A program made the translations under genes and the position numbers. A stretch of DNA of 49,134 bases, filler included, from Jimgerdemannia flammicorona (taxonomy: Eukaryota), in assembly GCA_003990765.1 (NCBI GenBank). It is 2 parts of 2 records of this genome, joined end to end, with 100 filler letters (N's around TTAATTAATTAA, not from the genome) between each part and the next. Parts side by side here need not be neighbours in the genome. Positions count along the whole stretch, not along the records: positions 1 to 24,518 come from RBNJ01000966.1; 1 more part is not named here. One strand, 5' to 3'. Shown one piece after another: positions 10,600 through 43,273 of the stretch. Each line of letters opens with the position of its first letter. Within the stretch, counting starts at the first letter, position 1. The notes beneath the pieces are model-generated. The model was not told where the DNA came from. It saw only the letters and a program-made list of their open reading frames with translations, and made no database searches.

Positions 10600-12446
10600 C
10601 CTAGGAACTCGCCCCCGTTTATTCTTTACACATACCTCCAGCTGCTCCAAATACCCTACTCCGTCGCCCATTTACCGCCCCTCTCAACGAAGCTGCTCAA
10701 GACATTCTACATCGTTTTCCTCTTCCTTCTTCTGCTCTTCACCCTGTCGCATGGGTATGTGAGCTCGAGTTGTATCCTGCCCTGTGGGTAGCTCAGGCTG
10801 CTATTGCCGCTATTACTCAAGGCGCTCTTCTCGGCTTTGATGGGCCTTGTCAGCACCTGCTGTCCTATAATCATCGCTCCACTCTCGACCACCCAGAAGC
10901 GATCACGTCTGACATTGAGCGGGAAGTCGCCGCTGGTAGAATTTGTGGTCCATTCTCATCCTCTCTGTTTGAATGCTTTCACTCATCTCCTCTTGGCGCC
11001 GTCACAAAGAAGAATTCTAATAGTACATGGCGTCATATTCATGACCTTTCTTGGCTCTGTCATGGCGATTCGGTGAATACTGGCATAGATACCGATGCCT
11101 TCCGGCTCTCTTACATTAAGTTCGACGAGGCTTTGGACTTGGTTCATCATTTTGGCCAGGGATGTCTTCTATCGAAGGTCGACCTCGCCAATGCATATCA
11201 TCATATTCTAATCCATCCTACGGATTGGGAGTTGCTGGGTTTCGAGTGGTCGGGGCAGTTTTATTTCGATCGGTTCGCTCCTTTTGGCACATCCTCGTCA
11301 CCATTTCTTTTCAACCTTTTCGCGGAACTTCTCACATGGATCGCCCACCATCACGACATATGCGCGCTCATCCACTACATTGACGATTTTCTCCTCGTTT
11401 CGCCGCCGCTCTGGCCGTTTGCCCTCTCCAACCTATGTTTACTTCTTGCCATCTGTCATCATCTCAGCTGGTCGATTCAAGAGCACAAGGTCAAAGGCCC
11501 GACAATGTCACTCATCTTTCTGGACATCGAATTGGATACAATGGCTATGGAAGCCTGCCTGCCTCTCGGCAAGGTTGATATGTTGCTCGCCACCCTTCAG
11601 CAGTGGCTATCGCACACACTATGTACACGCCCTCAACTGCAGTCTCTTATTGGTTCCTTGGCATTTGCCTGTAAAATCATTCTGCCGGGCCGCCCATTCC
11701 TGCGGCAGTTTATCGACCTTCTTTCCAGCAATACCTCATTCCATATCTCACTGAATGAGGAATTCTACACCGACATTCATTGGTGGCTCGAATTCCTACC
11801 CCACTGGAATGGTATTTCCATTATATATCTGGTAGCATGGTTCTACAAGCCTGATGCACAATTATGGATGGACGCCAGTAGAATCTAAGGCTTTGGTGCA
11901 CATTTCAATAGCGAATGGTTTTCCACTCCCTGGCCTCCTGATATAGCCTCGCGCGACATTCAGTTCAAGGAACTTTATGCCATGGTCGCTGCTGCTGCTA
12001 CCTGGGGCACTCAATGGCATTTTCACCGTATATTGCTTTATTCTGATAATCAGGCAGTCATTGCTATTATCAACTCGGGCTCTTCACGCAACCCTCTTCT
12101 GCTGGAACTTCTCCACTAGCTCTATTTTCAAATGGCGCATCACGCTTTTCAACTTCGCACCATATTCATCTCGACGTCCGATAATGGCATTGCTGATGCT
12201 TTATCCCATGCTGATCTTCCTCGTTTCTGTCATCTTGCCCCTTATGCTCAGATGCTCCTGAGCGCAATTGGTATCATTTGCATTCCGTGCTTCCACCCAT
12301 CGTTGCCTTCTTTTTGTGGTTCAGACTGGCAAAATCAATGCGCTGCTCATACTCTTTGGGACAATGCAGCTTCCTCTAATTCTGCAATCTCCATGGCAGT
12401 AATCATGCCTCTGGCGGGCCTTTGCCCACATCTGAACTGGTGCTAA
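10600..12446 (+). pseudogene. Ngaro RT/RNase H (start approximate; stop at 11886-11888 and another near 12117)
   Basis: SSPLGAVTKK, KVDLANAY, PFG..SSP, HYIDDF, WMDAS, IQFKEL, SDNQAV, ADALS. Confidence 0.9.
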
Positions 12447-15985: not shown

Positions 15986-16754
15986 CTACACCAAAATCCC
16001 AATGCCTCGGTAATCGACATCAAGCTGCGATGCACAGGAGCATTTTAATAAATGTAGAGGAGACGAATATGTCCAACAACTTTTAGGTTGTTGACGAAGA
16101 TATTGGAAAGGGAAACAACTATTGCCGACCATGCTGGACGAGCAGTAAGTAAAGAAGGGAACCCAAACACAAAATCCGAATTACGTGCGTGGAATTGTCA
16201 CTGGACGGCTTCGGCAAGAATGTCGAGACAGGTTGCTCAACCTAACTCACCATTACCGAGATGCCTAACCAGGCGTAGAGGTTCATCTGTTTCACCTGCG
16301 GTGATACTGCCTCTACAGGTGTTGTCGTCGAGCGTTTTTTGTGATATGACTTTAGACGAAGGAGTGAAATTCATTTTGGCATCGAATTAATTCAAAATAT
16401 TGTTCTAAAATTACATCTATTTAATAACATAATTACGGGCCTCTCGTTAATCAGAAGAAAGTTGATGCCAAGATGTAACTTTGTATCCCAATCTTGGGAT
16501 TCACTTTAAGTATTTACTAATTTTATAAAATTTGTAAACAGCCCTCACAACTGAAGCTTTTAACAAAACAATATTCCTCAGAAGCTTCCGTTCAGTACGG
16601 TAACCATATTTTTCGTTTTAGCTGACCCGCCACAGACCTGTGGCATCGTTCTCTTTCCTCAGGGATTAGCGCCAAAGTGATTTTGCCCCTGCCAGCATAT
16701 AATTTTGGATTTAGCTGAATACAAAGGAAGCCATCTAAAACCGCATGAATTAAA

Positions 16755-17830
16755 TTATTTGTAAAAATCGATTTGGTTGAAAACTTGCCTGGCAGGAAGA
16801 ACTTTTGCAGGAGCCACCTGGTCTCCAATTTCTGACTTTGAGCTTTCATAGAAACTGATCTCGGACTCTGAAGAGGGGGTCATAGGATTCGCTGAGGCTT
16901 CGGTGTTACTGTACGGCCAAATATATTGAGCTATCGCTGTCTCTATGCCTTCAAGATCCTGCAATACTTCGTCAATGGTCGGTCGCATTTCAGGATAAGT
17001 GTTCCAGCATCTCATGTAGATATCGGAATACTCCTTTGGTGTTTCAGGGATGAGCTTTTCGCGCAATCCATGGGCGGCATCTTCGGGTGGATTCATTGCA
17101 TCTCCTCGAGGGCGACTTCTTGAAGTAAGTCGCCATAGAAGTGTTCCGAGGCTGTATATGTCGGATTTTTGCGTGTAAAGTACAATAGTGTTCTTCAATA
17201 CTTCAGGTGGGAGATATTTAATCTGTCCTTGAATATGATCATCATATTTTTTGAAGTGTTCCACAGTGTCGCTTATACCGAAATCAATGATCATTGGATT
17301 GGAATAGTCTGTATGGAGAAACACGATATTTCCTGGGTGCAAGTCATTGTGAATCAACCCCGCATTATGAACCACTTGCAAACTGCGGGTAATTTCTGTA
17401 GCAATCCGCCACACCTTTGACCAGGAATTGGGCGGAGACTTTTTGAGGAGTTGTGCAAGATCACCACCCGCAGCGTAGTCCATCACCAGCATATAACATC
17501 CGGCTCTATCGTCCTTTGACATTCCTATGACTGTTGGCGTTGCTGAGTGACCGGATTTGTTGCAGAGCTGAAGATATATGTTTACTAGTAGCTGTTACGA
17601 CAAGAAACAAGTTTATGATATAAATTAATTGTAAAATTAAACCTTCCAGCTATAAGATGAAAATTAAAATATACCTCATTCCGCAATTGGTTATCAAAAA
17701 TGTTACTCTCTTTCAATATCTTCAGTGCAACAAATCTTCTGTCGTTCTGACTATCATTCACTGTGGCTTTGTGTACAGTTGCAAATGCACCTTCCCCCAA
17801 CTTTTCCATCAGTGTCAATTGGTCGTAAGA
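16755..17830 (-). other. C-terminal TKL-type kinase domain (non-RD)
   Basis: GEGAFATV, VALK, NE, LVMDY, HNDLHPGN, DFG, YLPPE, SDIYSLG, CW..RP. Confidence 0.9.
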
Positions 17831-20800
17831 TATCCAAACAATGCAAGCGGCAAGTTCAACCATCTCTAGCATGTTCAAGCACTCCAAGAGCCTATTCTGG
17901 TCACTAGGAAATTTGGGTTTAAGCTTCGACAGGGTATTGCAATCCATTGTCTTGAGAATATCTTGAATCCGATCAAAGATGTTTGTGGCTTTTGTCGACG
18001 TGCCAATTTGGGCAGGAGGCAGAAGTCTAGACACTATCCGTTAAAACCCAGCATATATACAACATAATGAGCTGTATCCCATCAAGCAGCCGGAAACAAT
18101 AGATTACAATTGTAAAATACCTCTGAGATTGAACGTAATGGTCGCGTTTCGTTTCAGAGCCTCACCAAGGGTGCGGACGTTCTTGCCACTTATGTTATTC
18201 TCTGAAATCGAAAAAGGGAGGGATGAGTGAAAACGCACAGGGCGTGAACAGGAGCCCATCTAGTAGATATAAAAACAGGTCTCCTGTTCTAATATACCAA
18301 AAACATCAAGCGTTGTCAGGGTTATGTTCTGCATCAGAGATTCGGTCAGTGCGCGTGCTCCCATATCGCTAATGTTGGTGTCTAAAGATGGATAATGGAT
18401 GGATAAGAAACATGCTCGGGTCATGGCGGGAACTCGTTGCACAGTTGAATATAAAAATTTACATACTATTGAGATTCAGTTTGGTCAGGGCCGTGCTCAT
18501 TTTCAGAGAGTTGGCCAGAGCAATTGCACCTACATCGCCAATTTTGTTGCCTGACAATAAATGGGAGATATATGAGACAAAACCCAATATCAGCTGGAAC
18601 TCACCATCACACAGCTGAAATAAAAATTTTACACACTTTTAACAAACCTTTGAGATTTAACATGAACAACGTCGTGTTGTTCTTTAGAGATGCCGCCAGT
18701 GCGCATGCCCCCTGCGCGCCAATATTGTTGGCTAAAGTTAAACAGAGGATAGATAATAATATAAGTGGGACGGATGAAAAAGTGGCGAACAACAGTTCGC
18801 ACAGATCTAACCTACATTGGAGATTAAGCATGGTCAGGGCCGTATTCATCTTCAAACACACGGCAAGTACGCGTGCTCCCTCCACGCCAATGTCGTTGCC
18901 TGAAGATATACAGAAGATGGATGAATAAAATAAATTAAAATGTGAACTGGATTTCTTCAAACACCTGCAATCAACATTTCATATAGTTACAACATACGAA
19001 AAAGTTTCAACGTGGTCAAGGTCTTGTTTAGCTTCAGCGATTCAGCAAGTGCGCGTATTCCTTTGGGACCGATCTTGTTGGCTGAAAATGAACAGACGAT
19101 TGGTCACTAAATACAAGCAAGTGTTGAGCCGGATCTCATCAAACATTTGCAAGCAACAGTTGTCCAAGTTCAAACTTACAATTGAGATTCAGTGTGGTCA
19201 AAGTCGTGTTCTGTTTCAGAAGCTCCGCAATTGCACATGCTCCCAGGACGCCGACATTGCTGGCTGAAGATGATCATCAGATAGGGGAACAAAAACATAT
19301 AAAATGCGAGCTGGAACATTTCACATACTTCTAACATACCTCGGAGATTCAGCGTCGTCAGCGTCGTGTTGTTATTCAAGGATTTGATCAATCCATGGGT
19401 TTTCTCGTCACCAGTTCTTTTGTCTATATATAAAGTGAGGCTGACAGTTAGCTCTATTCAGTACAAATTATGTCACTAAACAACCAGATCAAACCTCTGA
19501 TACGGAAATATTGAATATCATTATGAATCTTATTTTAAAATATAACTTTCGCTTTCATAATATGAATTCTAAGAGTAAAGACCATAAATCATCACTATGA
19601 TTTTGACAGCACGAACCTGCGAGTTTACCAAGCCACATATCTAAATTAGGCTTTTGATGGGTGCTGGCGGTCAATGCTTCTTGCAGCGGGGAGGGTGTTT
19701 GGGGAGTATTAACGGTAAACATTTCGGACTGCAGGGAGAGCGTTTGCGGGGTGCTGACGGTCAGCGCTTCCGGCTGTATGGCGGGCAGTTGGGTGGTGTT
19801 GGCGTTCAACGTTTCCAGCGTTTGGGTGGTGTTGGTGATCAGCGCTTCTGGCTGCGTGGAGGGCATTTGGGTGTTGGCGGTCGGTGCTTCCGGCTGCGGG
19901 GAGGGCGTTTGGGGAATGTTGGTAGTCAACGCTTCTGAGTGTGAGATGGACGTTTGGGAGATATGGACAGTCAATTTTTCCAGTGAGAGGGAGAGCGGTT
20001 CGTGAGTATTAGTGGTCAATGCTTCCAGCTGCGGGGAGGGCGTTTGAGGGGTGTTGGCAACAATTGCTTCCGGCTGCCGGGAGAGTGTTTCGGGGGTGTT
20101 GGCGGTCAACGCTTCCGGCTGCGGGGAGGGCGTTTGGGGGTTGCTGACAGTCAACGCATCCGACTGCGGGGAAGGCGTTTCGGGAGTGTTAGCGGTCAAC
20201 ACTTCTGGCTGCGTGGAGGACGTTTGAGAGGTGATGACGGTCAACGCTTCTGGCTGGGAAAAGGACATTTGGGAGGTGTTGGCGTTCAACGCTTCCACCG
20301 GCGGGGAATGTTGCCTACAAGGTCGTGGCGGGAATAGGGGCTCTTCGTCATAGGAAGAAAAGAGGCAATGCTGGGTTGATGAACAAATAAAAGAGTCAAA
20401 CCGACAGATTGCGTCAGTGTCACGCCCGCTATGTATTGAATTGCTCCTGAAAATAAAAAAAGTGTGTGTTTGCAAAGGATGATAAGACCTACTTCAAGCA
20501 GTTCGCTGGCGGAAGCACGCTGCGAATAATCTGGTTTCAAACATCGATCAACGAAGTCCATCAGCAAGTCATTCATATTTCGGGGATAATGTGGCCGACC
20601 TTGCTCGATGATCTTTCGCTTAAGCTATTTGAAGTGTAAGAATATAAAATTAAATCCATTCTGCGACAATCGACAGGTTTCGACAAATGAAATTTTAAAA
20701 ACCAACCTCTCCCTTCTCTAGGTGGTCATCTTCGTAGGGCGCCTTGCCGAAGTTGAGAATCTTGAGGACGACGATGCCGAGTGCCCAAATGTCGGCTTTT

Positions 20801-21609
20801 TGATTGATGAACTTGCCTTCACAGACTTCGGGGGCCCAAAACAATATGTCGCCAGCCTCTTCAGATGACGGTTTCACAATAGGTTTCAAGGAGCTGAAGC
20901 CGAAGCCACCTGATTGTGGGAAGAGGTAAAGGATTAGAATGAGCGAGGCACGTGGTAACGACGTTTGGGGGAGAGGCAAGGTAATCACCGATCACGATGG
21001 TGTTGTCTTCGCCAAGGAAGAAATTTTCGCATTTGATATCGCGATGGATGTAGCCATGCTTGTGGATTTCCACGAGACCTGACAAGAGCTGTGGTATTTG
21101 TACGGCCAGGATGGATGAAGCACAAATTATTTAGGGTAGCCCCACAACGCCACGCAGCACGCACAATATACCAACTAAATACAACGAATACAAAGCACTA
21201 AACTGACCCTTTTGAGGATGAAGACCATTTGGGACAAAATGACCCAATTGTCTATGCAGTACTGTTGCAGGGTCCCGCCATTGCAGTACGGTGTCACGAG
21301 GAAGACGCAGCCATCGTAGATGTAGATGCTGTGCAATCGCAGAATATTTCGATGTTGTCCACATTTGGCCATGGTGATGATTTCGCTTTCAACGAGCTTC
21401 TCGTCCTTGCCCCCCTCGATAATCAGGTACTTTTTTATGGCTACATTCTGGCGTGTGCCGCCTGACTCGTTGTAGTGGTACACGTTACCCTGTCCCGAGG
21501 GACATGTGGGGTTTATGGCGCTGAGCCCGCTCTAAATGAGCTGCGGGTCGGAGAAGTGTTTAGACACGCCGTCTAACTTGCGTGCCATTAATGATTCAAG
21601 CACCGACAT
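16755..21609 (-). CDS. Tandem-kinase LRR protein: STE20/PAK-like pseudokinase + S/T/P repeats + 8 RI-like LRRs + TKL kinase (15 exons, ~1147 codons; in-frame TAG at codon 26, so possibly a recent pseudogene)
   Basis: Hand-built GT-AG exons: 21609-21208, 21088-20989, 20909-20707, 20624-20493, 20370-19629, 19423-19340, 19263-19180, 19081-18998, 18899-18816, 18731-18648, 18550-18467, 18381-18298, 18201-18121, 18033-17675, 17591-16755; total 3444 nt, frame maintained. Confidence 0.8.
18121..19423 (-). repeat. Eight ribonuclease-inhibitor/NLRC3-type LRR exons (7x84 nt, 1x81 nt), all bounded by phase-1 introns
   Basis: e.g. NKIGPKGIRALAESLKLNKTLTTLKL, NDIGVEGARVLAVCLKMNTALTMLNL, NNIGAQGACALAASLKNNTTLFMLNL. 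Confidence 0.92.
19650..20298 (-). repeat. 45-bp coding tandem repeat, ~15 copies (PEALTANTPQTPSPQ)
   Basis: Visible in the DNA and in ORF 19555-20475. Confidence 0.93.
20350..21530 (-). other. N-terminal STE20/PAK-like kinase domain with DFG>GFG and a degenerate Gly-loop (probable pseudokinase)
   Basis: VAIKK, HRNIL, GGTL, HRDIKCEN, IVIG-GFG, FWAPEV, ADIWALG, R-SASELLE-H. Confidence 0.8.
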
Positions 21610-21849: not shown

Positions 21850-23985
21850 TTATATATATTACCACAAGTTTAATGTATAATATATTTTTAAAGATTACGA
21901 TACTTAAATATATATCAAATTTGAAATAAATAAAAATATTATAACTAATAAATAATATTTTAATAACTTTATAAAATAATAATTAGATAAATATTTTAAT
22001 TTAAAATGCTAATTGGTAATTTAATTAATATATTAATAAATACAGTAATTACAATATTTAATATTTAAAAAATTATAAAGTAGATTTGACTTTAATATAA
22101 GACTTATATTTTAAATAAATAATATAGATATTATTTAAGCTAAAAATAAATATTATAATAATTAATCTAAATTAGAAAAATTCAAAAGTTAGATATTTGA
22201 TTATTGAATCTAAATCTAATTCCCAAATATAGTTAGTAGCAACTCTTAACAATATTATTAATATTATTGATAATATGATTTCTAATTAATAATATATAAC
22301 TTAGCTAATATATAGTTTGTAAACTTCTATAAATAATTTAATATTTTAAAGTAAATAAACTCTAATTGAAGTAGTTTCAATATAAAGAACTATATAGTCT
22401 ATAAATAGATATAATTATATCAAACTCACTGATTCTTACTAATAATTTTAAAGAGTTATAAAGACTAAGAAATTAAAATAAAGAAATTTACTATTCTTTT
22501 TAAATTAAGCTTTTAATATATTATAACTTAATATCTATTGGCTATTAATTTAAGACAAATTTCTCACTTTTAAGATATATAATAAATAACTAATATTACT
22601 ATATAAAATCTTTTCAAAATATTTAGATTAAATAATATAATGGTTGATCCAAATTCAGATGAGGGCTGAGTGGTTCATCTGAATAATAAATTGTCTCTCC
22701 ACAAGATAGTAGTGGAACTTCTCTATAGTCTAAATAACTGCAAGATATTCCAACTTATAGAATTTATACTCTTTTTCAACTCCTCAAGTTCCTCAGCTGA
22801 GATATATAATAATATACTCTACTTTATCTTTCTTCTAAGCCAGAACTGCTCCTAGTCCTTATATACTTGCATCTGTTTACAGGATGAATTCTTGGATTCA
22901 ATCAGGTCTTCTGAGAATTGGCACTTGAGTCAGTCTGATCTTATACTCATTAAATGCTTTTTGTTATCTACTAGTCTATTGGAACTTAATATCTTTCTTA
23001 TTAAGTTCTAAAATTGAGTCTATAATATTAGAGAATTCTCTAATAAATCTGCAGTAGTATGAGGTGAGTCTTATGAAGGCTTGGGCTTCAGTAACAGTAA
23101 TGAGCCTTGGGTATACTGCTATGTACTACTTAGATCTTGAGCAGATCTGTATATATTCCATTTTTAGTTAATGATATGAGCAAGATAGATCTTGATTTCA
23201 ACAAACTTACACTTCTTGGGCTTGATGTATAGATCATGCTTCTTTAGCTTTTCCATCATCTGCCAGATATACTATAGATGTTCTTCAGCTGTCTTGTTGT
23301 AGATAATAATATTATCTATATAAACTATTATACATCTTCCCATATTATAGTAGAAGATTTTGTTTATTATTTGCTGAAAGCTTGCTGATGTATTGTATAT
23401 TCTAAATGAAATTTGAAGATAAACATAGATTCTATCTGGAGTGATGAAGGCTGATTTTTTACTTACTACTTTAGTAAGACCAATCTGGTAAAATCTTAAG
23501 TATAAATCCATAGTACTATAATATTGTACTTTATCTCCCAGAGTTACAAGAATGTTACTGATGAGGGGCAGTAGTTGGTAATTCTTCTTTATAGCTAGGT
23601 TGAGCTGCCTGTAATCAGTACAGAGTCTTCTCCTGACTTGCTTCCTTTTTCAGAGCCAATATAACTGGTGAAGCCCAAGGGCTGCTAGCTTCTTTAATAA
23701 TACTAGTATTATCTATCTGCTTGATTTCTTTTCTGAGTCATTCACAATAAGCTGGTGGAATTGGTCTTCATTTTTGGTAGATTGGTCTAGTATCTCCTAT
23801 ATCTATATCATAATAATAGTATAGAGTCTTTCTCTTGATATTCTTGAAATCTGTGGTCAGAATATCCTCAAATTTGAAGAGTATCTTTTTGAGTTCCTTT
23901 TTGAGTAGAAATTTATTTCTAATAGTATAGCTGTATATGTTTGTAATTTTCTCCTTTTTGTTATCTAATTTGGTAAACTTGATAC
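21850..23985 (-). mobile_element. Heavily decayed Ty3/gypsy RT-RH-(IN) fragment, related to element 4
   Basis: PWASPVIL..LCTDYRQLN; MDLYLRFYQIGL; VYIDNIII; YKLEYLAVI*TIEKFHYYL. Confidence 0.8.
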
Positions 23986-24518: not shown

Positions 24519-24618
24519 NNNNNNNNNNNNNNNNNNNNNNNNNNNNNNNNNNNNNNNNNNNNTTAATTAATTAANNNNNNNNNNNNNNNNNNNNNNNNNN
24601 NNNNNNNNNNNNNNNNNN
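24519..24618. other. Artificial assembly linker (44 N + TTAATTAATTAA + 44 N)
   Basis: Exactly 100 bp, symmetric; the 12-mer places stops in all six frames. Confidence 0.93.
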
Positions 24619-31535: not shown

Positions 31536-34500
31536 AAAGTTGCAAGCATAGCTGAGAACTAAGCCAATTCAATGCTCATTTTCAAAGGTTTAGTCAAGAG
31601 ATAAGAACTAGATGTTCTCATAGATAGTGGAGCTGTTGGGAACTTCATCAACAAGAACCTCATCGACAAGCTCAAGATTCTCACCAAACCAGCTGGCAAG
31701 AATGGTGGAGTTGTTACTGCAGATGGCACTATCTTACCAATCAACTCAATTACCACTAAACTTCCCCTCAAGATCCAGAAGTACTGGGAACATTTAGATT
31801 TCAAGGTAGCACCACTAGGAGACCATGACCTGATCCTAGGCAAACTCTGGCTTATATGGCACAACCCTCAGATTAATTGGATCAAGAATGAAGTCACCTT
31901 GATTCAAGATGGAGCCAACATTACCATCAAGCCAGACAAGACTCAGACAAGAATCCCAATTGCTACCCTTTCAGCAATTCAGTTCAAGAAGGCTCTCAAG
32001 AAAGCTACCTGTGCCTTTATAGTACTGATCTAACCAAAGAAAGAAGATAAGAAGCTATTAATTAGTGAAAGCATCAAGTTACTGCTAAATAAGTACAAGG
32101 ATGTCTTCCTGGACAAACTACCTGATCTACCATCTTCAAGAGACCATGACCACGAAATCAAGTTGGTACCTGATGCAGCTATACCTAAGAAGAAAATGTA
32201 CCACATATCTCTACTCAAAATTGAAGTAGTTAAGAAGGAACTCAATGAATTCATCAAGTGAGGAGCCATTCAGCCAAGTAAGTCACCCTTTGGCTCCCCA
32301 GTCCTATTTGTCAAGAAAAAGGATGATACTCTGCAAATGTATATAGACTACTGAGCACTCAACAAGATCACAGTCAAGAACTATTATCTGCTACTACTCA
32401 TAGATCAAATCTTTGATGCTCTCATACTTCACTAAGATTGATCTCACCTCTGGATATCACCAAATTCGAATCAAGCCAGAAGACATACCCAAGACTGCCT
32501 TCATGATATCCTTCAGACTTTACGAATTTCTAGTCATGGCCTTTGGTCTCACCAATGTGTCAGCAATCTTTCAAGATCTTATGTAAACTGTCTTCAAGGA
32601 TCAGCTCTATATCTTTGTACTTGTATATATTGATGACATTCTGATCTTCAGTAGCACTGAAGAAGAACACCTCAAGTATATTGAACAAGTCCTCAAGATC
32701 CTCCATGAGAACAAGCTCAATGCAAAGCTCAAGAAATGTGAATTTTTTAAGGATCAAGTTAAATACCTTGGACACATTGTATCAGCCAAAGGAATTTAAG
32801 TAGACCCAAGGAAAATACAAGCCATTGAACAGTGGCCTATACCAGCAAACCTCACTAAACTTAGATCCTTCCTTGGTCTGGCTGGATACTACCATCAATT
32901 TGTCAAGAACTTCTCTAGTATTACAGAATCTTTGACAAACCTCCTGCGAAAGGAATCCAACTCTGACCTCTATGTCCCCTATATCTGGGATGCTTTCTGT
33001 CAACAAGCTTTTCAAGAACTCAAGAACTGCCTGACCCATGCACCTGTTCTTAGAAATATAGACCCAAATTGAAGTTCATAGTTACTATAGATGTATCTAA
33101 CTTTGCCATTAGTGCAGTCATTTCTCAAGATAATGGTCAAGAATATCAACCTATTGCCTTTGAGTTAAGAAAATTGTCCCCAGCAGAACAAAAGCTGGCT
33201 ACTCATGAAAAGGAACTCCTGGCAATCATGCATACTCTCAAGACCTGACAATATTATCTAGAAGGAGTTGAGTTTGACATGATCACCAATCACAGGTCCC
33301 TTCAGTACATCAACACTCAATCAACCCTTTCTCACCAATAAGCCAAGTGGAGTCAACTGCTTCAGACCTTTACCCTAAACATCATCTATAAGCCTGGCAA
33401 AACTCTAGTTGTATCAGATGTACTTTCAAGGAGACTTGACCTTGCCACAATTTTACAAGTCACTGTGGCACCTGAATTTCTCAATCAGATCAAGAAGGTA
33501 TATAAACAAGACTCTCTGGTTCTACAAAGAAACATCAAGGAATTCAAGGAAAAGTACACCATCAAGGACAACCTTGTATACTATCAAGACAAAGTATATA
33601 TTCTGACCAACCCTGAACTATAGTATAAGATTCTTCATGAACATTATAATTCCCCACTAGCTAGTCACCTTGGAACTGAGAAGACCATCAAGAATATCCA
33701 ATGAGACTACTACTGACCAAACATGCTCAAGGAAATCAAGGAGTATGTCCAAAGCTGTGATCTTTGCCAAAAAAACAAATCAATTAACCAAGCATCTGCC
33801 AGTCTTCTACAACTCTTCCAAGAAGTTCAAACAAGTCACAATAGACTTCATTGTGCAACTCCCATGAACCAAAACAGACTATGATACTATTGTTATATTT
33901 GTGGACCATCTCACCAAGATTACAATCACTGAGCTAATCACAACTAATGCCACTGCCCCAGAAATTGCAAGAATCTTCTTCAAGACTGTCTTTTGCCATT
34001 ATGGACTTCTCTGAGTAATTATCAGCAACTGTGACCCCAAGTTCATAAGCCACTTATGGCAAGCACTCTTCAAGACCCTTGGAACCCAAATTACTATGTT
34101 TACTGCCTTCTATCCTCAAACTGATAGACAGACTGAGTGAATGAACAGAATACTCAAACAAATGCTCAGAAACTATATGTCTTATGAGTAAGATGATTGG
34201 GACCACTATCTGACCTATGCCGAGTTTGCCTACAATAATGCCACCCAATCATCAACTAGCCTTTTCCCATTTCAGCTACTTCATGGTCAAAACTCCAAGA
34301 CCCCTGCAAGCCTAGTCCCATTCCAGCAATCCAGTTACACACAAGTCCCCACAGCCCAGAACCTTATCAACAAAATGGATTCCTTTCTCAAGATTATTAC
34401 TATGAATCTGCAAAAGGCTCAGCAACATCAAGCTAAGTATACAGATAAGAAGCTGCGAGATATTATATTCAATATTGGTAATATGATTCTACTCAAAGTC

Positions 34501-37559: not shown

Positions 37560-40159
37560 TGTAATAGTATAGCTGAATTAGGAAGAAGAAAATAGGGAAT
37601 AGATACTTGATCGCACCCATTCCCAAAGTAGTATAGTTTTATAGTTAGCAGTTGCTGATTTCGACATTGTCTAAATTTCTAGATATTGTCCAAATCGAAC
37701 ATCCCGATTTAGTATAGCATTTCGACATTGTCTAAATTTCTAGACATTGTCTAAATGACTCATAACTTAGCCATGTAACTCAGTAGCTATCTCATAGCTA
37801 GCAAACTTGTATAAATAACCCAGTATCTTCAAGTGAATAAACCTCAGATCGAAAGTATTAGAAAAGAACAAGTATACTGATAAAAGGACCTTCGGAATTA
37901 CCTCTTTAAATACATTTGGCCTCAAGAAACTACTGACTCTGGAAGTCAAGAAGACAAGAATTCAAGATAAAGAAATCTGACGAACTTGCCCATCTTAGCA
38001 TCTGCTACATTACAACTTGGTGCCTATTGGCTGGTGATTTAAGACGAATCCCTCACTTTCAAGCTGAACAATGAATAACTGCAACAAGAACCCACACAAC
38101 ACAATTAGACAAAATGGATATGAGACCACTTGTATTCCATGGATACACCTCTGATGAATCAATCATCACCTTCATTGATGATTTTGAGCAGTATGCTGCT
38201 GTAAGGACCTTAAGTGCAGCACAACAAGTAGCCCTACTCCCTGTAAGCCTCCGAGGCCCAGCAAGAACCATGTTTACTGCAGCTAATGTATAAGGAGCTG
38301 ACGATCCAGCAAGAATCCTGGCCTTCAAGGCCTGGCTCTGGGTAACCTACTATATAGATGAAATCAAACAGACACTCAAAGATCAACTGAATACCATCTG
38401 CCAAGAAATGTCAGAAGACCTAAAAACATTCTACACAAGGATCCAATACCAAATAGTCCTCGCTAACTATCCCGATACAGTTCAAGACCAAGTGGCTGAG
38501 AATACCTTCATGAAAGGCATTCACCAAGAAATCACTTTAGCCATTCGATCTATCTCAACACTACTGGACCTGGGACAGAAGGTTACCTATGTCCAAAGAT
38601 ACTGGACTGCCAGACACCCTCAAGGCCACATAATGGAAAGGATAATCAGAGTAAAAATCAAACAAGTACCAAGAGTCACCAATACAATCCCAGCTACCAT
38701 AGTCAACCAGAATACACAACCGCAATCACAAGAACAGAGAAGGGTTGACCCAATGGAGGAACTGGCCAAACAGTTCACAGAAATGACTGCATACCTCAGT
38801 GACGTAGTCAAAGAGTTCAAAAAGAAGCCAGTACAGAAGTTTGCTGCTATAAATGCAAGATGATCCATAACATGCTACAACTGTGGAGAAGAAGGCCACT
38901 ATGCCTCCAAATGTATGACAGAAACCAAGCGAAAGGTCAATCCAAGCAATGCAACCAGAAATCGCGAGCAGGCAAACACTATCACCTTCAAGGAGATTGG
39001 AGAATCTGAGGAAGAGAGGGAGGAATGGGAAGCTTACCCTGCCACCTCAAGCAAGAAGGATGTCTGATCCAGTCCCTACAAAAGATCTCCAGGCAGACCT
39101 CCTAAGAAGGCCCAGACACAAACAAGATAACCAGAAAGAGTCATCGAAAAAGAAAGTCAGCAGAGTGAAGCTGACCAAGATATGGAGCTAGAACAAGATG
39201 CTGAGCTAGAGTGAGCAGTAGAAGATATTATTCGAAATACTACTCCATCAAGTGAAGGGAAGAAGGAGCAGAAACTGTGCAAGAGCAAGACCTTCAAGTA
39301 TGACATCTTCAAGGACCTCAAGGATCAAAAGGTCAATGCAACCTTTGGCCAGCTGGCTGAAATCCCAACATTTAGACAACAAATGAGAACAGGAATCTCA
39401 GACATCGGTAAAGACCAAGGTTATAAAATAATCGAAGCCAACAACACATAAGAGGATTCAGATGAAGAGAGTGAAGACAACCAGAAAACATCAGCCTATG
39501 CTATGTATCTGCCAGATCGAGGACCAGGTCTTTGAAGCCATCATTGATACAGGAGTAGGAGGATGTCTCATCACCAAGAAAGCAGTAGACCACCTAGGTT
39601 GGGAGATAGAAGAAGCCACCAAATTGGTGTTTGTCACAGCCAATGGGACATGAGCAACACCCTTGGGAAAAATTCAGGATGTACCAATCAAGTTCGGCAA
39701 AGCCACTATACCTGTAGATGTCATTATCACCAATGAAACCAACTATGATATCCTCATCAGCAACCAGTGGCTTCACAAAGCCAAGGCTATGATTGACCTC
39801 AGTGCACAGAAGATGCAGATCATCTACTGGGGAAAGAAGATCAGAATTTCCATCAATGTCCACAAAGGAGTCTGCCCTGAGATAGAGGAAGACTAAGAAA
39901 AAGAAGCCTATATGGTTATTATGAAGAAAGAAAAAGGCAAGCAATTGACAGAGGAAGAATAGTATATAAGAATCACAGATGGATATGCCCCACTAGGAAG
40001 GTGCCCCCATGGTGAAAGAATGTACTGTACCCAGCACTTGGATCACTGCTACTCCTGTATCATTGAGGTAAAGAAGATTACCAACAAGCTAAAGAAGAAC
40101 CAGGAGAAACCAGAAGATGGACCACCAGAACTATTGGATGATAGTGATGATGAAGAAGA

Positions 40160-40575
40160 CATCACAGTCAAGATACGAAGAATCCACCCTAATGCAGTCA
40201 TACCACAATACAAATCAGAGAATGTAGCAGGAATGGACCTATCTACTACAACACATACAATACTCAAACTGCAGACCACCACCATTCTAGGAACAGGAAT
40301 TGAAGTAACCATTCCGCCAAACTATGTTGGAATCCTCAAGATAAGGAGCAGCTTGGCAAAGAGTGAAATATCTATAGAAGGAGGAGTCATCAATTCGGAT
40401 TATACTGGAGAAATCCTTCTCCTTGCCAGGAACCACAACCCAACAATCCCATTCAAAGTAAGGAAGAAGGATCGGCTAGCGCAAATGCTCATCCTACCTG
40501 TCCTTAATTCAAGAATCAAGAAAGTCACAAACATCAGACAAACTCAATGAGGAAGAGCTGGATTTGGCTCTATAG
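40160..40575 (+). pseudogene. dUTPase domain of element 4, between PR and RT
   Basis: AGMDL, RSSL, IEGGVINSDYTGEI, DRLAQML, AGFGS. Confidence 0.92.
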
Positions 40576-43273
40576 GAAGAGGAGTCCTCGCAGCAACTAA
40601 GATTACTGAATTGGAGTACAAGAAGGAGGAAAGCCGAGACAAACAGACCTATACAATCAGAAGAAACTTTCCCCTCAGGGAAGAATTGCAGAGCCTCTTG
40701 CATACATTCGAGGATGTACTGGCCACAGATTTCAAGGACATCAAGACCAAGTAACCCTTGTATTATCATGATATCAATACTGGAGATGCAAAGCCAATCT
40801 ATCAGAAGGCCCACCTCATTCCACCAGCATACAGAGAATGGCTCAAGACAGAGATCAAGGAAATGGAGGAATCCAGTATCATTGAAGAAGCCAGTAGCCC
40901 TTGGTCCTCCCCCATTGTTCTTGCACCAAAGAAAAGAAGCCGACCAAGAGAATTTGCACCAAGACTTTGTACAGATTATAGAAGACTCAATGAGGTCACA
41001 GAGAAGGACAGATAACTATTGCCCAACATTGGTGACATTCTTATCATGCTGGAGAATGAAGCATGATTCTACACCACTCTTGATCTGTTCTCTGGATTCT
41101 ACCAAATTGGCCTTACATCTGAAGCCAGCAAAAAGTCAGCCTTCATCACCCCAGATGGAACTTATGTCTATCTCCGCATGCCCTTTGGAATGTGCAATGC
41201 ACCAGTAAGCTTCCAGCGAATGATGAACAGTATCTTCAGAGATATTATGGAGAAATGGATGATGGTATACATAGATGACATAATCATCTTCAGCCGAACA
41301 GCTAAAGAACACTTGGACCACATTGAGGAAATCCTCAGAAGGCTTCGCAAACATGGCCTCTATATCAAGCCCAAGAAATGCAAGTTTGGAGAAGAAGAAA
41401 TTGCATATCTTGGACACATCATCAACCATGAAGAAACACATACAGACCCTACAAAGATCAAGGCAGTAGCAGCATACCTAGTACCTACCAGTACCACTGA
41501 AGCCCAAGTCTTCATGGGACTTGCATCCTACTATAGAAGATTTATCAGAAGGTTCTCCTACATTGCCAGTCCTATCTATGATCTGTTCAGAAAAGAGGTC
41601 AAGTTTCAGTGGACTCAGCAGCAGCAACTAGCCTTTGATGAGCTCAAGACCAGATTGACCCAGGCCCCAATCCTGAGAAGACCCGACTGGACTCAAGAGT
41701 TTATTCTGCAGACGGATGTCAGTGCAATGGAACTTGGAGCTGTCCAAGCACAAAAGAAGAATAGTGCCAAATATGTGGTAGCTTATCTCAGCCAAGGTAT
41801 CCAAGGAGCCAAGCAGTCCTATGAATCATACAAGTTGGAATGCCTTGCAGTCATCTGGGCTGTAGAGAAGTTCCACTACTATCTAGCTGGCAGACACTTC
41901 ACCATCCAGACAGATCATTCAGCACTCACCTGGTTGCTCACTACCAGTGAACCCAAAGGAATCTATGCCCAATGGATCATAAAGCTGCAAGTATATAATG
42001 CCATGATCACCCACTACTCTGGAAGAACTAACACCAATGCTGACACCCTCTCATGGACACCCTGAAGGACCCCACCCCCACAAAATCACTATAAATAGGG
42101 AGCTATATTATGGAATTATCAGCTACCTGGGGCAGCAAAAGATGTCCCTGCATCTGGAAGAATGGACAAAAACAATTATTAATTGAACATGGAAACAATT
42201 CGAAACTGATAGAGAAATACTCAAGAAAGGACAATAATTAGTTATCCCTAAGCACCAGAAGAATCAAGTGATGAAAGAAGTACATGAACAGAGTTATGTA
42301 AGAGGAACAAATACGTATGACAAAGCAAAAAGAACTATGTAGTGGCCCAGAATGGAAGAAGATATCAGACAATTTGTCAGAACCTGTGACAAATACCAGA
42401 AACAGAAACAAGACCAATGGGATCAAGCCCCTGGATCAGCAGACATCAAACCAATACCATTTGCCCACATTGCAATGGATGTAATTGGCCCTCTACCCCT
42501 GACATTAACTGGCAACTGATATATCATTGTAATAGTGGATCTATTTACAAAATAGGTAGAGGCCAGACCCCTCAAGGAAGCCAATGCACAGTCAATTGCT
42601 GATTTCTTTTATAGAGAAATCATCTGCCAATTCATGACCTCAAAGCAAGTTACTACAGACAGAGAAACAGAATTTGTCAACCAGTTCTATGAGGTTCTTT
42701 ACAAGAAGTACAAGATCCAGCACATCAATACTACAGCCTATCACCTACAAGGAAATGGACAAGCAGAAAGAATCAACAAGACCCTCAAGAACATCATTGC
42801 CAAAATCTGTAATGAATATGGAAACTGGGACCACTATCTACCAATAGCATTATCTACTCTGTGGGATGTACGATCACAAAGCACCCATTTTACACCACGA
42901 GAAATGCTATTCAGTGAACAAGGTTCTGGTGGAAGTTTGTCAGCAGGTAACAATGCAATCTGGAAGCATATGGATATGGAGATACAGAAATTGCATCAAA
43001 TTAGGAAAAAGGCAGAAGATTACATAATCAAGGTGCAGGCACTACAACAGAGCAATGCAGAAAAAACCCACAAGTCCCTGGAGATTATCAAGATAGGAGA
43101 TGAAGTCCTGGTATATCAGAATATGGTAGAAGCCTCTTGGTCATGAAAACTGGAGCCTAAATGGAAAGGACCTTACCTGGTGCAAGATATAAAAGGGACC
43201 ACTTTCTGACTACAAAAGCCCTCAGATACAATAATCCCCACTACCATTTACTGAAACTGACTCAAGAAGTACC

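Follow-up and report, generated by a model that had tools for sequence, protein, structure and literature searches.

Can one fungal gene join two protein kinases of different groups to an array of leucine-rich repeats (LRRs), and what kind of protein would it encode? This question is raised by a locus of Jimgerdemannia flammicorona (Endogonaceae, Mucoromycotina; assembly GCA_003990765.1) that lies in a stretch of 49,134 nucleotides, filler included, hereafter called the window. Positions 1-24,518 of the window are [GenBank:RBNJ01000966.1], and the rest comes from a second record beyond the filler. The coding chain in question is on the minus strand, where it starts with an ATG at 21609 and reaches about 16590 (21609 to 16592 in the final model). 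An earlier reading made from the DNA letters alone (the sequence-only reading) had seen here a fusion of pseudokinase, repeats, LRRs and kinase, and had proposed an immune receptor. We put the probability that the locus is a single gene of 16 exons at roughly 0.7. Its product would carry, in this order, a PAK/STE20-like pseudokinase, a repeat linker, eight LRRs of the ribonuclease-inhibitor (RI) type and a kinase of the tyrosine kinase-like (TKL) group. This inventory and order, as first proposed, are borne out by Pfam, solved-relative and hidden Markov model (HMM) matches.

Gene model

Coding pieces were taken from stop-to-stop frames and from the three-frame translation of 21900 to 16500. 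All frame-compatible GT/GC-AG pairs between neighbouring pieces were enumerated, and the choice among them was made by homologues and RNA contigs. Two sets of assembled sequencing contigs, X1 and X2, were aligned to the window, and all statements about contigs refer to the pieces listed. X1 is RNA-derived, because it holds spliced contigs identical to the window. The database proteins compared are labelled P0004 to P0130, and the local comparison set comprised 275 proteins.

In the model so obtained, 16 exons add up to 3,519 nucleotides, corresponding to 1,171 codons and a stop. The 15 introns are 76-193 nucleotides long, 14 of them GT-AG and one GC-AG, and every junction is phase-compatible. 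GC content is 0.42-0.57 in the exons and 0.23-0.51 in the introns. The 15 GT-AG exons in one frame that the sequence-only reading had described need revision, given the sixteenth exon, the GC-AG intron and a TAG at codon 26. The TAA with which that reading closed its last exon is spliced out with the GC-AG intron (Table 1), and the true stop is the TGA at 16592-16594. The GC-AG intron lies in the 3′ coding tail; gene models restricted to GT donors would miss such introns.

Three of the 15 introns are confirmed by RNA. A 337-nucleotide X1 contig (record 1), with 0 mismatches, joins 16687/16788 with 4 ambiguous letters and fits the GC-AG junction 16688/16789. Another X1 contig (record 5) confirms the introns 18382-18466 and 18202-18297 (joints 18381/18467 and 18201/18298, intron ends CT..AC). 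Unspliced X1 contigs identical to the window cover 19833-19982 in the linker, 17828-17978 in the pre-kinase segment and 17146-17327 in the kinase, and one that is identical on 17675-17834 stops there at the donor, with 12 further letters. None of the contigs listed is identical to the window on exons 1-4.

In the 5′ half the model is supported by homologues. The annotated protein P0125 has its exon borders at the positions of introns 1-3; its residues 1-133 align to exon 1 at 94.7% (tblastn), and the N-terminus is conserved in the paralogues. Intron 4 (20492-20371) yields ...SELLE/HCLFSSYDEEPLFPPRP, which is colinear with ...ELLKHSFLSPDVEAPLFPPRP in P0129 and P0130 and with the equivalent segment in P0127. 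These three are annotated proteins with kinase and linker in one chain. P0129 and P0130 cease to resemble each other right after LWLNEYA, where the window has MWLGKLA followed by a phase-1 donor (CAG/GTTCGT). The linker ends at a conserved xWLxxxA boundary, at which two of the three kinase-linker paralogues end. An alternative phase-1 donor would put the end of exon 5 at 19629, and the donors 19595 and 19582 with the acceptors 19453 and 19440 were rejected for intron 5, since they would break the 84-nucleotide, 28-residue unit.

The two junctions around the LRR array rest on different kinds of evidence. Exon 6 is exactly one 28-residue unit lacking its own first beta-strand, and the tail of exon 5 would supply that strand. 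The LRR exons contain no in-frame Met before unit 4, and the Met of MWLGKLA is Leu or Ile in the paralogues. A paralogous X1 contig of depth 17.4 touches, in order, 20320, 20105-20130, 19718-19746, 19401-19425 and 19258, that is, the start of the linker, two of its repeats, LRR 1 and LRR 2. The matching sides are 25-26 nucleotides long at 90-95% likeness, so this is weak support for continuity from linker to LRR. The junction from LRR to TKL is an 87-nucleotide phase-1 intron with the frame opening at the acceptor. It has less support than the junction from linker to LRR and also leans on P0030, an annotated protein that has the same LRR type and a related TKL. For intron 14, the acceptor at 17591 was picked by homology (NELLVNIYLQL vs NEFFLNIYIRM in P0004 and P0028); the candidate at 17567 was rejected, as the homologues favour 17591.

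Premature stop in exon 1

The TAG at codon 26 is best taken as a nonsense change in a conserved codon and not as a mis-set frame, because the relatives carry Tyr at this position. This holds for all six relatives that have the region, within motifs such as ...PxxIYSGLS and ...DFYDGLS (...SDPQLIYSGF... in P0125). The public model of the locus, P0124, avoids the TAG by a 48-nucleotide intron (21577-21530) and takes the second ATG as its start. An X2 contig covering 21386-21553 crosses the TAG site unspliced, with 4 differences to the window, one of them at 21445. An intron of 36 or 72 nucleotides that would remove the TAG was rejected, given that the relatives are colinear there and the X2 contig is unspliced. 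Unless an assembly error accounts for the base, the allele in the assembly is probably null or decaying.

Pseudokinase and linker

The N-terminal kinase was characterized through P0125, which shares 97% identity with the model across 279 amino acids. P0125 matches Pkinase at 2.5e-39, and among solved structures it is most similar to PAK1 (1.2e-29), PAK2/3, MST4, STK24 and PAK4. The domain occupies residues ~27-279 of the model, and VAIKK, the alpha-C Glu, HRDIKCEN and WAPE are preserved in it. Despite the strong match to the fold, it does not have an active PAK/STE20 core: the Gly-loop is degenerate (PSGQGNVY) and DFG has become GFG. GFG is found in all four annotated relatives whose models include the exon (P0125, P0126, P0127 and P0129); the models of P0124, P0128 and P0130 lack the DFG/GFG segment. 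Further loss is seen as HRN in P0126 and VVIR in P0127 and P0128. By these motifs the pseudokinase state is a character of the family, because GFG recurs in four of four relatives together with the HRN and VVIR variants; here the pseudokinase claim of the sequence-only reading stands. PAK/STE20 kinases have an N-terminal CRIB/PBD regulatory region. In the model, only 26 residues precede the PAK-like domain. A metagenome scan with the pseudokinase alignment kept 80 loci, all of them generic kinases at most 38% identical, and no close pseudokinase relative was among them.

The linker is ~250 amino acids long, with T, P, S, L and Q together making up 62%. It consists of QPEALTANTPQTPSP-like units of ~15 amino acids, encoded by a 45-nucleotide tandem repeat (10.6 copies, 69% match) that has super-periods of 90 and 180 nucleotides. 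It matches no Pfam family below E 0.1.

LRR array

Eight LRR units of 28 residues each (27 in the last) span residues 531-753, with the consensus xNxIGxxGAxALAxSLKxNTTLTxLNL. Each unit is encoded by one phase-1 exon, seven of 84 nucleotides and one of 81. Over 18121-19423 (minus strand) the borders of the exons cut the repeat between ...LNLx and xNxIG. In single-exon scans, Pfam LRR_6 was found in three of the eight (E 0.0058-0.091) and nothing in the other five; the scores are weak because the LRR_6 model straddles the exon borders. An HMM built from the eight units matches P0030 at 4.4e-43, over nine units, and matches nothing else among the 275 proteins. P0030 itself matches LRR_6 at 1.3e-33, and its LRR part matches ribonuclease-inhibitor-like proteins, RNH1, LRRC34, NOD2 and NLRP3/5/9/14. 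Judged by these comparisons and by the 28-residue unit length, the assignment of the repeats to the RI type is confirmed. With symmetric phase-1 exons, repeats can be gained or lost when whole exons are duplicated or dropped. In X1 and X2, transcripts of paralogues skip 291-818 nucleotides between LRR exons, which is consistent with copies having fewer repeats.

TKL kinase and topology

The C-terminal kinase has the motifs GEGAFATV, VALK (855), the Glu of LRNELL (870), HNDLHPGN (954), DFG (975, in IDFGIS) and YLPPEV. All residues for catalysis are present, and by sequence the domain is catalytically complete. Exon 15 matches Pfam PK_Tyr_Ser-Thr at 8.3e-27, and its best solved relatives, at ~1e-16, are EGFR, RIPK1, RIPK4, TNNI3K, TAK1 and DLK. 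The TKL exon is 50-56% identical to proteins of Endogone sp. FLAS-F59071 and of relatives, and 32-39% identical to proteins of Rhizophagus, Gigaspora and Funneliformis. With its HxDLHxGN loop and conserved helical pre-kinase segment, it belongs to a TKL set expanded in Mucoromycota.

The TKL exon, used in an exhaustive search, retrieved 130 representatives at E <= 1e-30. By local HMM, at least two kinase domains are present in 103 of the 150 best TKL representatives, a ranking by summed score that favours multi-domain proteins, so that a tandem-kinase arrangement is not unusual among the nearest TKL relatives. Rhizophagus clarus P0026 (1,845 amino acids) has six full kinase folds and a partial one (two hits), with only two HxDLHxGN loops and one NFG, and P0027 of the same species (941 amino acids) has three tandem TKL copies. 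Because multi-kinase proteins are frequent among the TKL representatives, these examples included, tandems of kinase and pseudokinase are common in the TKL family. Such arrays seem to be widespread in Glomeromycotina gene models, or these models are merged tandem genes. Neither a STE20-like pseudokinase nor an LRR between kinases was found in the other TKL-family proteins examined.

Endogone sp. P0028 (719 amino acids) combines a caspase-like Peptidase_C14 domain (residues 18-240, E 9.5e-06) with a TKL sharing 52% identity with that of the model. This hints at a link of the TKL subfamily to cell death. It also suggests, because the TKL is joined there to Peptidase_C14, a modular design in which a variable N-terminal domain precedes the pre-kinase segment and the TKL.

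No transmembrane segment was found, in agreement with the soluble product first proposed. As judged from Kyte-Doolittle hydropathy, the mean stays at or below 1.6 over every stretch of 19 residues. The two maxima are located in the pre-kinase segment and in a helix of the kinase, and the N-terminus is hydrophilic. Pfam searches of all exon translations found no NTPase family, and the repeat linker is the only long stretch outside the kinases and the LRRs.

Family, expression and genomic setting

The window contains one copy of the gene. A search with exon 1 returned seven family proteins among 59 candidates, all from J. flammicorona, which fall into four sequence groups: P0124/P0125, P0126, P0127/P0128 and P0129/P0130. 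The longest annotated family model has 572 amino acids, and none runs into LRR or TKL. The family is small, multi-copy and lineage-restricted, and not a conserved single-copy housekeeping family. As far as the searches reach, the architecture would be restricted to Endogonaceae.

The LRR motif at 19184-19221 and the catalytic-loop region are deeply covered by many contigs of 90-95% likeness. Their summed X1 depths are 144-745 at 17224-17404, 18310-18490 and 19034-19214, and the window-identical contigs have depths of 2-4. This shows that there are numerous expressed paralogous LRR and TKL genes, some of them far more expressed than the window copy, because the 90-95% contigs are far deeper than the identical ones. 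Of the seven differences listed from the X2 allele, 4 are non-synonymous and 3 synonymous, too few for a ratio of non-synonymous to synonymous rates (dN/dS).

The surroundings are rich in transposable elements (TEs), as the sequence-only reading had remarked: of 38 open reading frames (at least 110 amino acids) outside the locus, six match Pfam, and all six are retroelement-type (Table 1). GC falls to 0.21-0.28 in AT-rich blocks at 22-23, 37-38 and 44-47 kb. The two parts of the window are joined at two runs of N (24519-24562 and 24575-24618, 44 bases each and 12 bases apart). Between 25000 and 30000 the two strands differ strongly in composition (GC skew -0.35 to -0.53), and overlapping long plus-strand frames give low-complexity peptides rich in S, L and P. 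No Pfam match was found in this region and no tandem repeats in the C-rich stretch at 24.6-30.5 kb; it may be a degraded element.

Table 1. Coordinates of the gene model and of retroelement-type matches in the window
Feature	Position	Strand	Remarks
Exon 1	21208..21609	-	ATG 21609-21607; N-lobe of PAK/STE20-like pseudokinase, Gly-loop PSGQGNVY, VAIKK; contains the in-frame TAG
In-frame TAG, codon 26	21532..21534	-	Tyr in P0125, P0126, P0127, P0128, P0129, P0130
Exon 2	20989..21088	-	Catalytic loop HRDIKCEN; borders match P0125 alignment
Exon 3	20707..20909	-	GFG instead of DFG across exon 2/3 junction; WAPE kept
Exon 4	20493..20624	-	End of pseudokinase (...SASELLE); P0125 residues 236-279 100% identical
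Exon 5	19617..20370	-	Linker of ~250 amino acids, ending in conserved MWLGKLA; X1 contig identical on 19833-19982
Exon 6, LRR 1	19340..19423	-	84 nt, phase 1-1
Exon 7, LRR 2	19180..19263	-	84 nt
Exon 8, LRR 3	18998..19081	-	84 nt; weak LRR_6, E 0.0077
Exon 9, LRR 4	18816..18899	-	84 nt
Exon 10, LRR 5	18648..18731	-	84 nt
Exon 11, LRR 6	18467..18550	-	84 nt; LRR_6, E 0.0058; downstream intron 18382-18466 RNA-confirmed
Exon 12, LRR 7	18298..18381	-	84 nt; both flanking introns RNA-confirmed
Exon 13, LRR 8	18121..18201	-	81 nt
Exon 14	17675..18033	-	Helical pre-kinase segment, TKL Gly-loop GEGAFATV, VALK; homology to P0004, P0028
Exon 15	16789..17591	-	TKL core (HNDLHPGN, IDFGIS, YLPPEV) and Ser-rich tail
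GC-AG intron	16689..16788	-	GCAAGT...CAG; takes out TAA 16755-16757
Exon 16	16592..16688	-	Last 31 codons and TGA 16594-16592
RVT_1	10605-11885	+	Pfam
RVT_1	23275-23649	-	Pfam
RVP_2	31605-32030	+	Pfam
Retroelement remnant	39963-43143	+	dUTPase, RVT_1/RNase H and sub-threshold integrase, in order; Pfam

Comparison with known systems

The sequence-only reading knew of no description of this architecture. A protein of pseudo-PAK, RI-type LRR and TKL was likewise not found in the literature searched (mostly open-access) or among the 275 proteins. The only one of these proteins with both LRR and TKL is BC937DRAFT_86469 of Endogone sp. FLAS-F59071 (P0030, 769 amino acids). Like the model, it is soluble, with nine RI-type LRRs and a related TKL (34%, HEDLHPGN). 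Unlike the model, it has the order TKL, linker, LRR, and neither a PAK-like pseudokinase nor a 15-mer repeat linker. On the N-terminal side, P0127, P0129 and P0130 share the pseudokinase and the repeat linker with the model. The Glomeromycotina multi-TKL proteins share the TKL family with HxDLHSGN loops and have several kinase folds, some without catalytic motifs. In contrast to the model, all their domains are TKL paralogues in tandem, with no LRR and no STE20-like domain.

The domains of plant tandem kinase proteins descend from plant receptor-like kinase (RLK)/Pelle lineages. The present domains do not follow this descent: the N-terminal one is nearest to PAK1 and MST4, and the C-terminal one to RIPK1/4, TNNI3K, TAK1, DLK and the Mucoromycota TKLs. 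The likeness to the plant proteins is the pairing of kinase and pseudokinase, which in the model is predicted to occur in one polypeptide. The model is unlike them in that an LRR array and a 250-residue repeat stand between the kinases, and there is no homology beyond the kinase fold. Rpg1 and WTK1/Yr15 are plant tandem kinase proteins (reviewed in PMC8761531) that unite kinase and pseudokinase in a soluble chain; the decoy logic proposed is common to them and to the immune reading of the model.

Other receptor classes fit less well. Receptors of the NLR (nucleotide-binding LRR) and STAND (signal transduction ATPases with numerous domains) classes are distinguished by NACHT or NB-ARC, which the model lacks, and plant or oomycete LRR receptor kinases by a signal peptide, an extracellular LRR, a single transmembrane helix and then a kinase, an arrangement of which hydropathy gives no sign here. 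In ROCO/LRRK kinases (LRRK1/2, Dictyostelium Roco), a cytosolic LRR is followed by a TKL-group kinase, with a Roc GTPase and COR in between. The model differs from these: it has no Roc or COR, the last LRR and the Gly-loop are only ~79 residues apart, exon 14 has no Pfam match other than kinase, and the LRRs are of the RI type.

As to fungi, a survey of 49 genomes (PMC2939053) reports no LRR receptor kinases; its only LRR-kinase genes were four in Batrachochytrium and five in ascomycetes, those of the ascomycetes lacking introns and resembling bacterial genes. It describes fungi as being without LRR-type pattern-recognition receptors. Fungal NLRs mainly use WD40, TPR or ANK repeats instead of LRRs, as stated in PMC10197012. 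The literature context of Endogonaceae genomes is plant symbiosis and Mollicutes-related endobacteria, according to PMC10507103, which also describes LRR-containing PknD kinases as common to Glomeromycotina/Mortierellaceae and these endobacteria and as moving horizontally. Protein clusters of this type found in a sequence atlas have LRR_4, not LRR_6, and are bacterial; the model has 15 spliceosomal introns.

Alternative explanations

Several observations weigh against a single functional gene. The TAG at 21532-21534 interrupts the exon 1 reading frame in the assembly. No listed contig bridges exons 4-5, 5-6 or 13-14 at the locus, so that the single transcript assumed by the sequence-only reading is upheld only in part, namely by the three confirmed introns and by the paralogues that join pseudokinase and linker. 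The public annotation at the locus is the kinase-only P0124 of 191 amino acids, 99% identical, which skips exon 3 and has introns of 46 and 48 nucleotides. The near-identical P0125 has 284 amino acids and ends, via an alternative acceptor at 20447, in ...SELLEEQFNT and a stop. The full architecture occurs in none of the 275 proteins, and LRR with TKL only in P0030. Finally, whatever function we assign to the gene is purely inferred. A rival reading assumes two or three genes on the same strand. One would encode a PAK-like pseudokinase that may or may not include the repeat tail, another an LRR-TKL kinase of its own, and the fusion would be an artefact of compatible splice sites. In its favour, the annotated P0124 and P0125 end just past the kinase domain, and P0127, P0129 and P0130 at the linker end; no annotated protein in the database represents the TKL part of the locus, and the disputed junctions have no bridging RNA among the listed pieces. 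However, the annotated 46- and 48-nucleotide introns are outliers against the 76-193 nucleotides of the other 15, and the 48-nucleotide one only skips the TAG. The EEQFNT ending of P0124 and P0125 depends on the 46-nucleotide intron and would leave the in-frame, paralogue-conserved HCLFSSYDEEPLFPPRP segment non-coding, the gap between exons 5 and 6 is only 193 nucleotides, the LRR part has no conserved start codon, and the paralogous X1 contig links linker, LRR 1 and LRR 2, albeit weakly through its short sides. Separate genes are therefore an unlikely explanation in our judgement. A recently inactivated, functionless pseudogene of the family, whose intact splice sites reflect the recency of the nonsense mutation, is somewhat less improbable but still doubtful: the TAG does replace a Tyr shared by every relative with the region, but it is the sole defect in 1,171 codons and 15 introns, spliced transcripts are identical to the window for downstream parts, and a single-base assembly error is possible.

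If the locus is a single gene, its spliced product would be a soluble, cytosolic LRR sensor or scaffold kinase of ~1,170 amino acids. The concave face of the LRRs would bind a protein or small ligand, the TKL domain would be the signalling output, and the tethered pseudokinase would serve as a regulatory, docking or bait module toward the TKL, while the S/T-rich and probably disordered linker would offer phospho-acceptor sites. We consider the single gene together with this generic mechanism slightly favoured over its opposite. In a more specific form, which builds on the immune receptor proposed by the sequence-only reading, the protein could be a cytosolic receptor in innate immunity or allorecognition, with the pseudokinase as decoy, the LRRs as sensor and a RIPK-like TKL that triggers defence or cell death. 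The analogy draws on the kinase-pseudokinase tandem of plant tandem kinase proteins (PMC8761531), on RI-type LRRs as the sensor type of animal NLRs, with the P0030 repeats matching NOD2 and NLRP3/5/9/14, and on the nearest solved kinases, which include RIPK1 and RIPK4. The Endogone TKL fused to a caspase-like domain points the same way, as do a multi-copy and lineage-restricted family, the TE-rich setting and a null allele resembling presence/absence variation. On the other side, there is no nucleotide-binding domain, the 4 non-synonymous and 3 synonymous differences to X2 are uninformative, and LRR-kinase combinations serve non-immune signalling too. An immune role thus appears quite improbable to us, and about as likely is a scaffold for ordinary signalling of the mitogen-activated protein kinase (MAPK) type, composed of a MAP4K-like pseudokinase and a MAP3K-like TKL. 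The most far-reaching version, and the least likely of those considered, is that Endogonaceae have a family of NTPase-less LRR cytosolic receptor kinases, with PAK-like bait, RI-type LRR sensor and RIPK-like TKL executioner, which arose as an independent fungal invention and in which the stop allele would be a presence/absence-type polymorphism. If true, it would bring together the logic of plant resistance proteins with tandem kinases and the repeat by which animal NLRs sense, and would show the presence/absence polymorphism typical of immune genes.

Conclusions

The architecture is a new combination of known parts. The locus appears to represent a multidomain gene that was split and partly missed by automated annotation, and because of this, similar architectures in early-diverging fungi may be under-counted. 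A lineage-specific, intron-rich family in which a pseudokinase is joined to RI-type LRRs and a TKL would add a new class to the candidate intracellular sensors.

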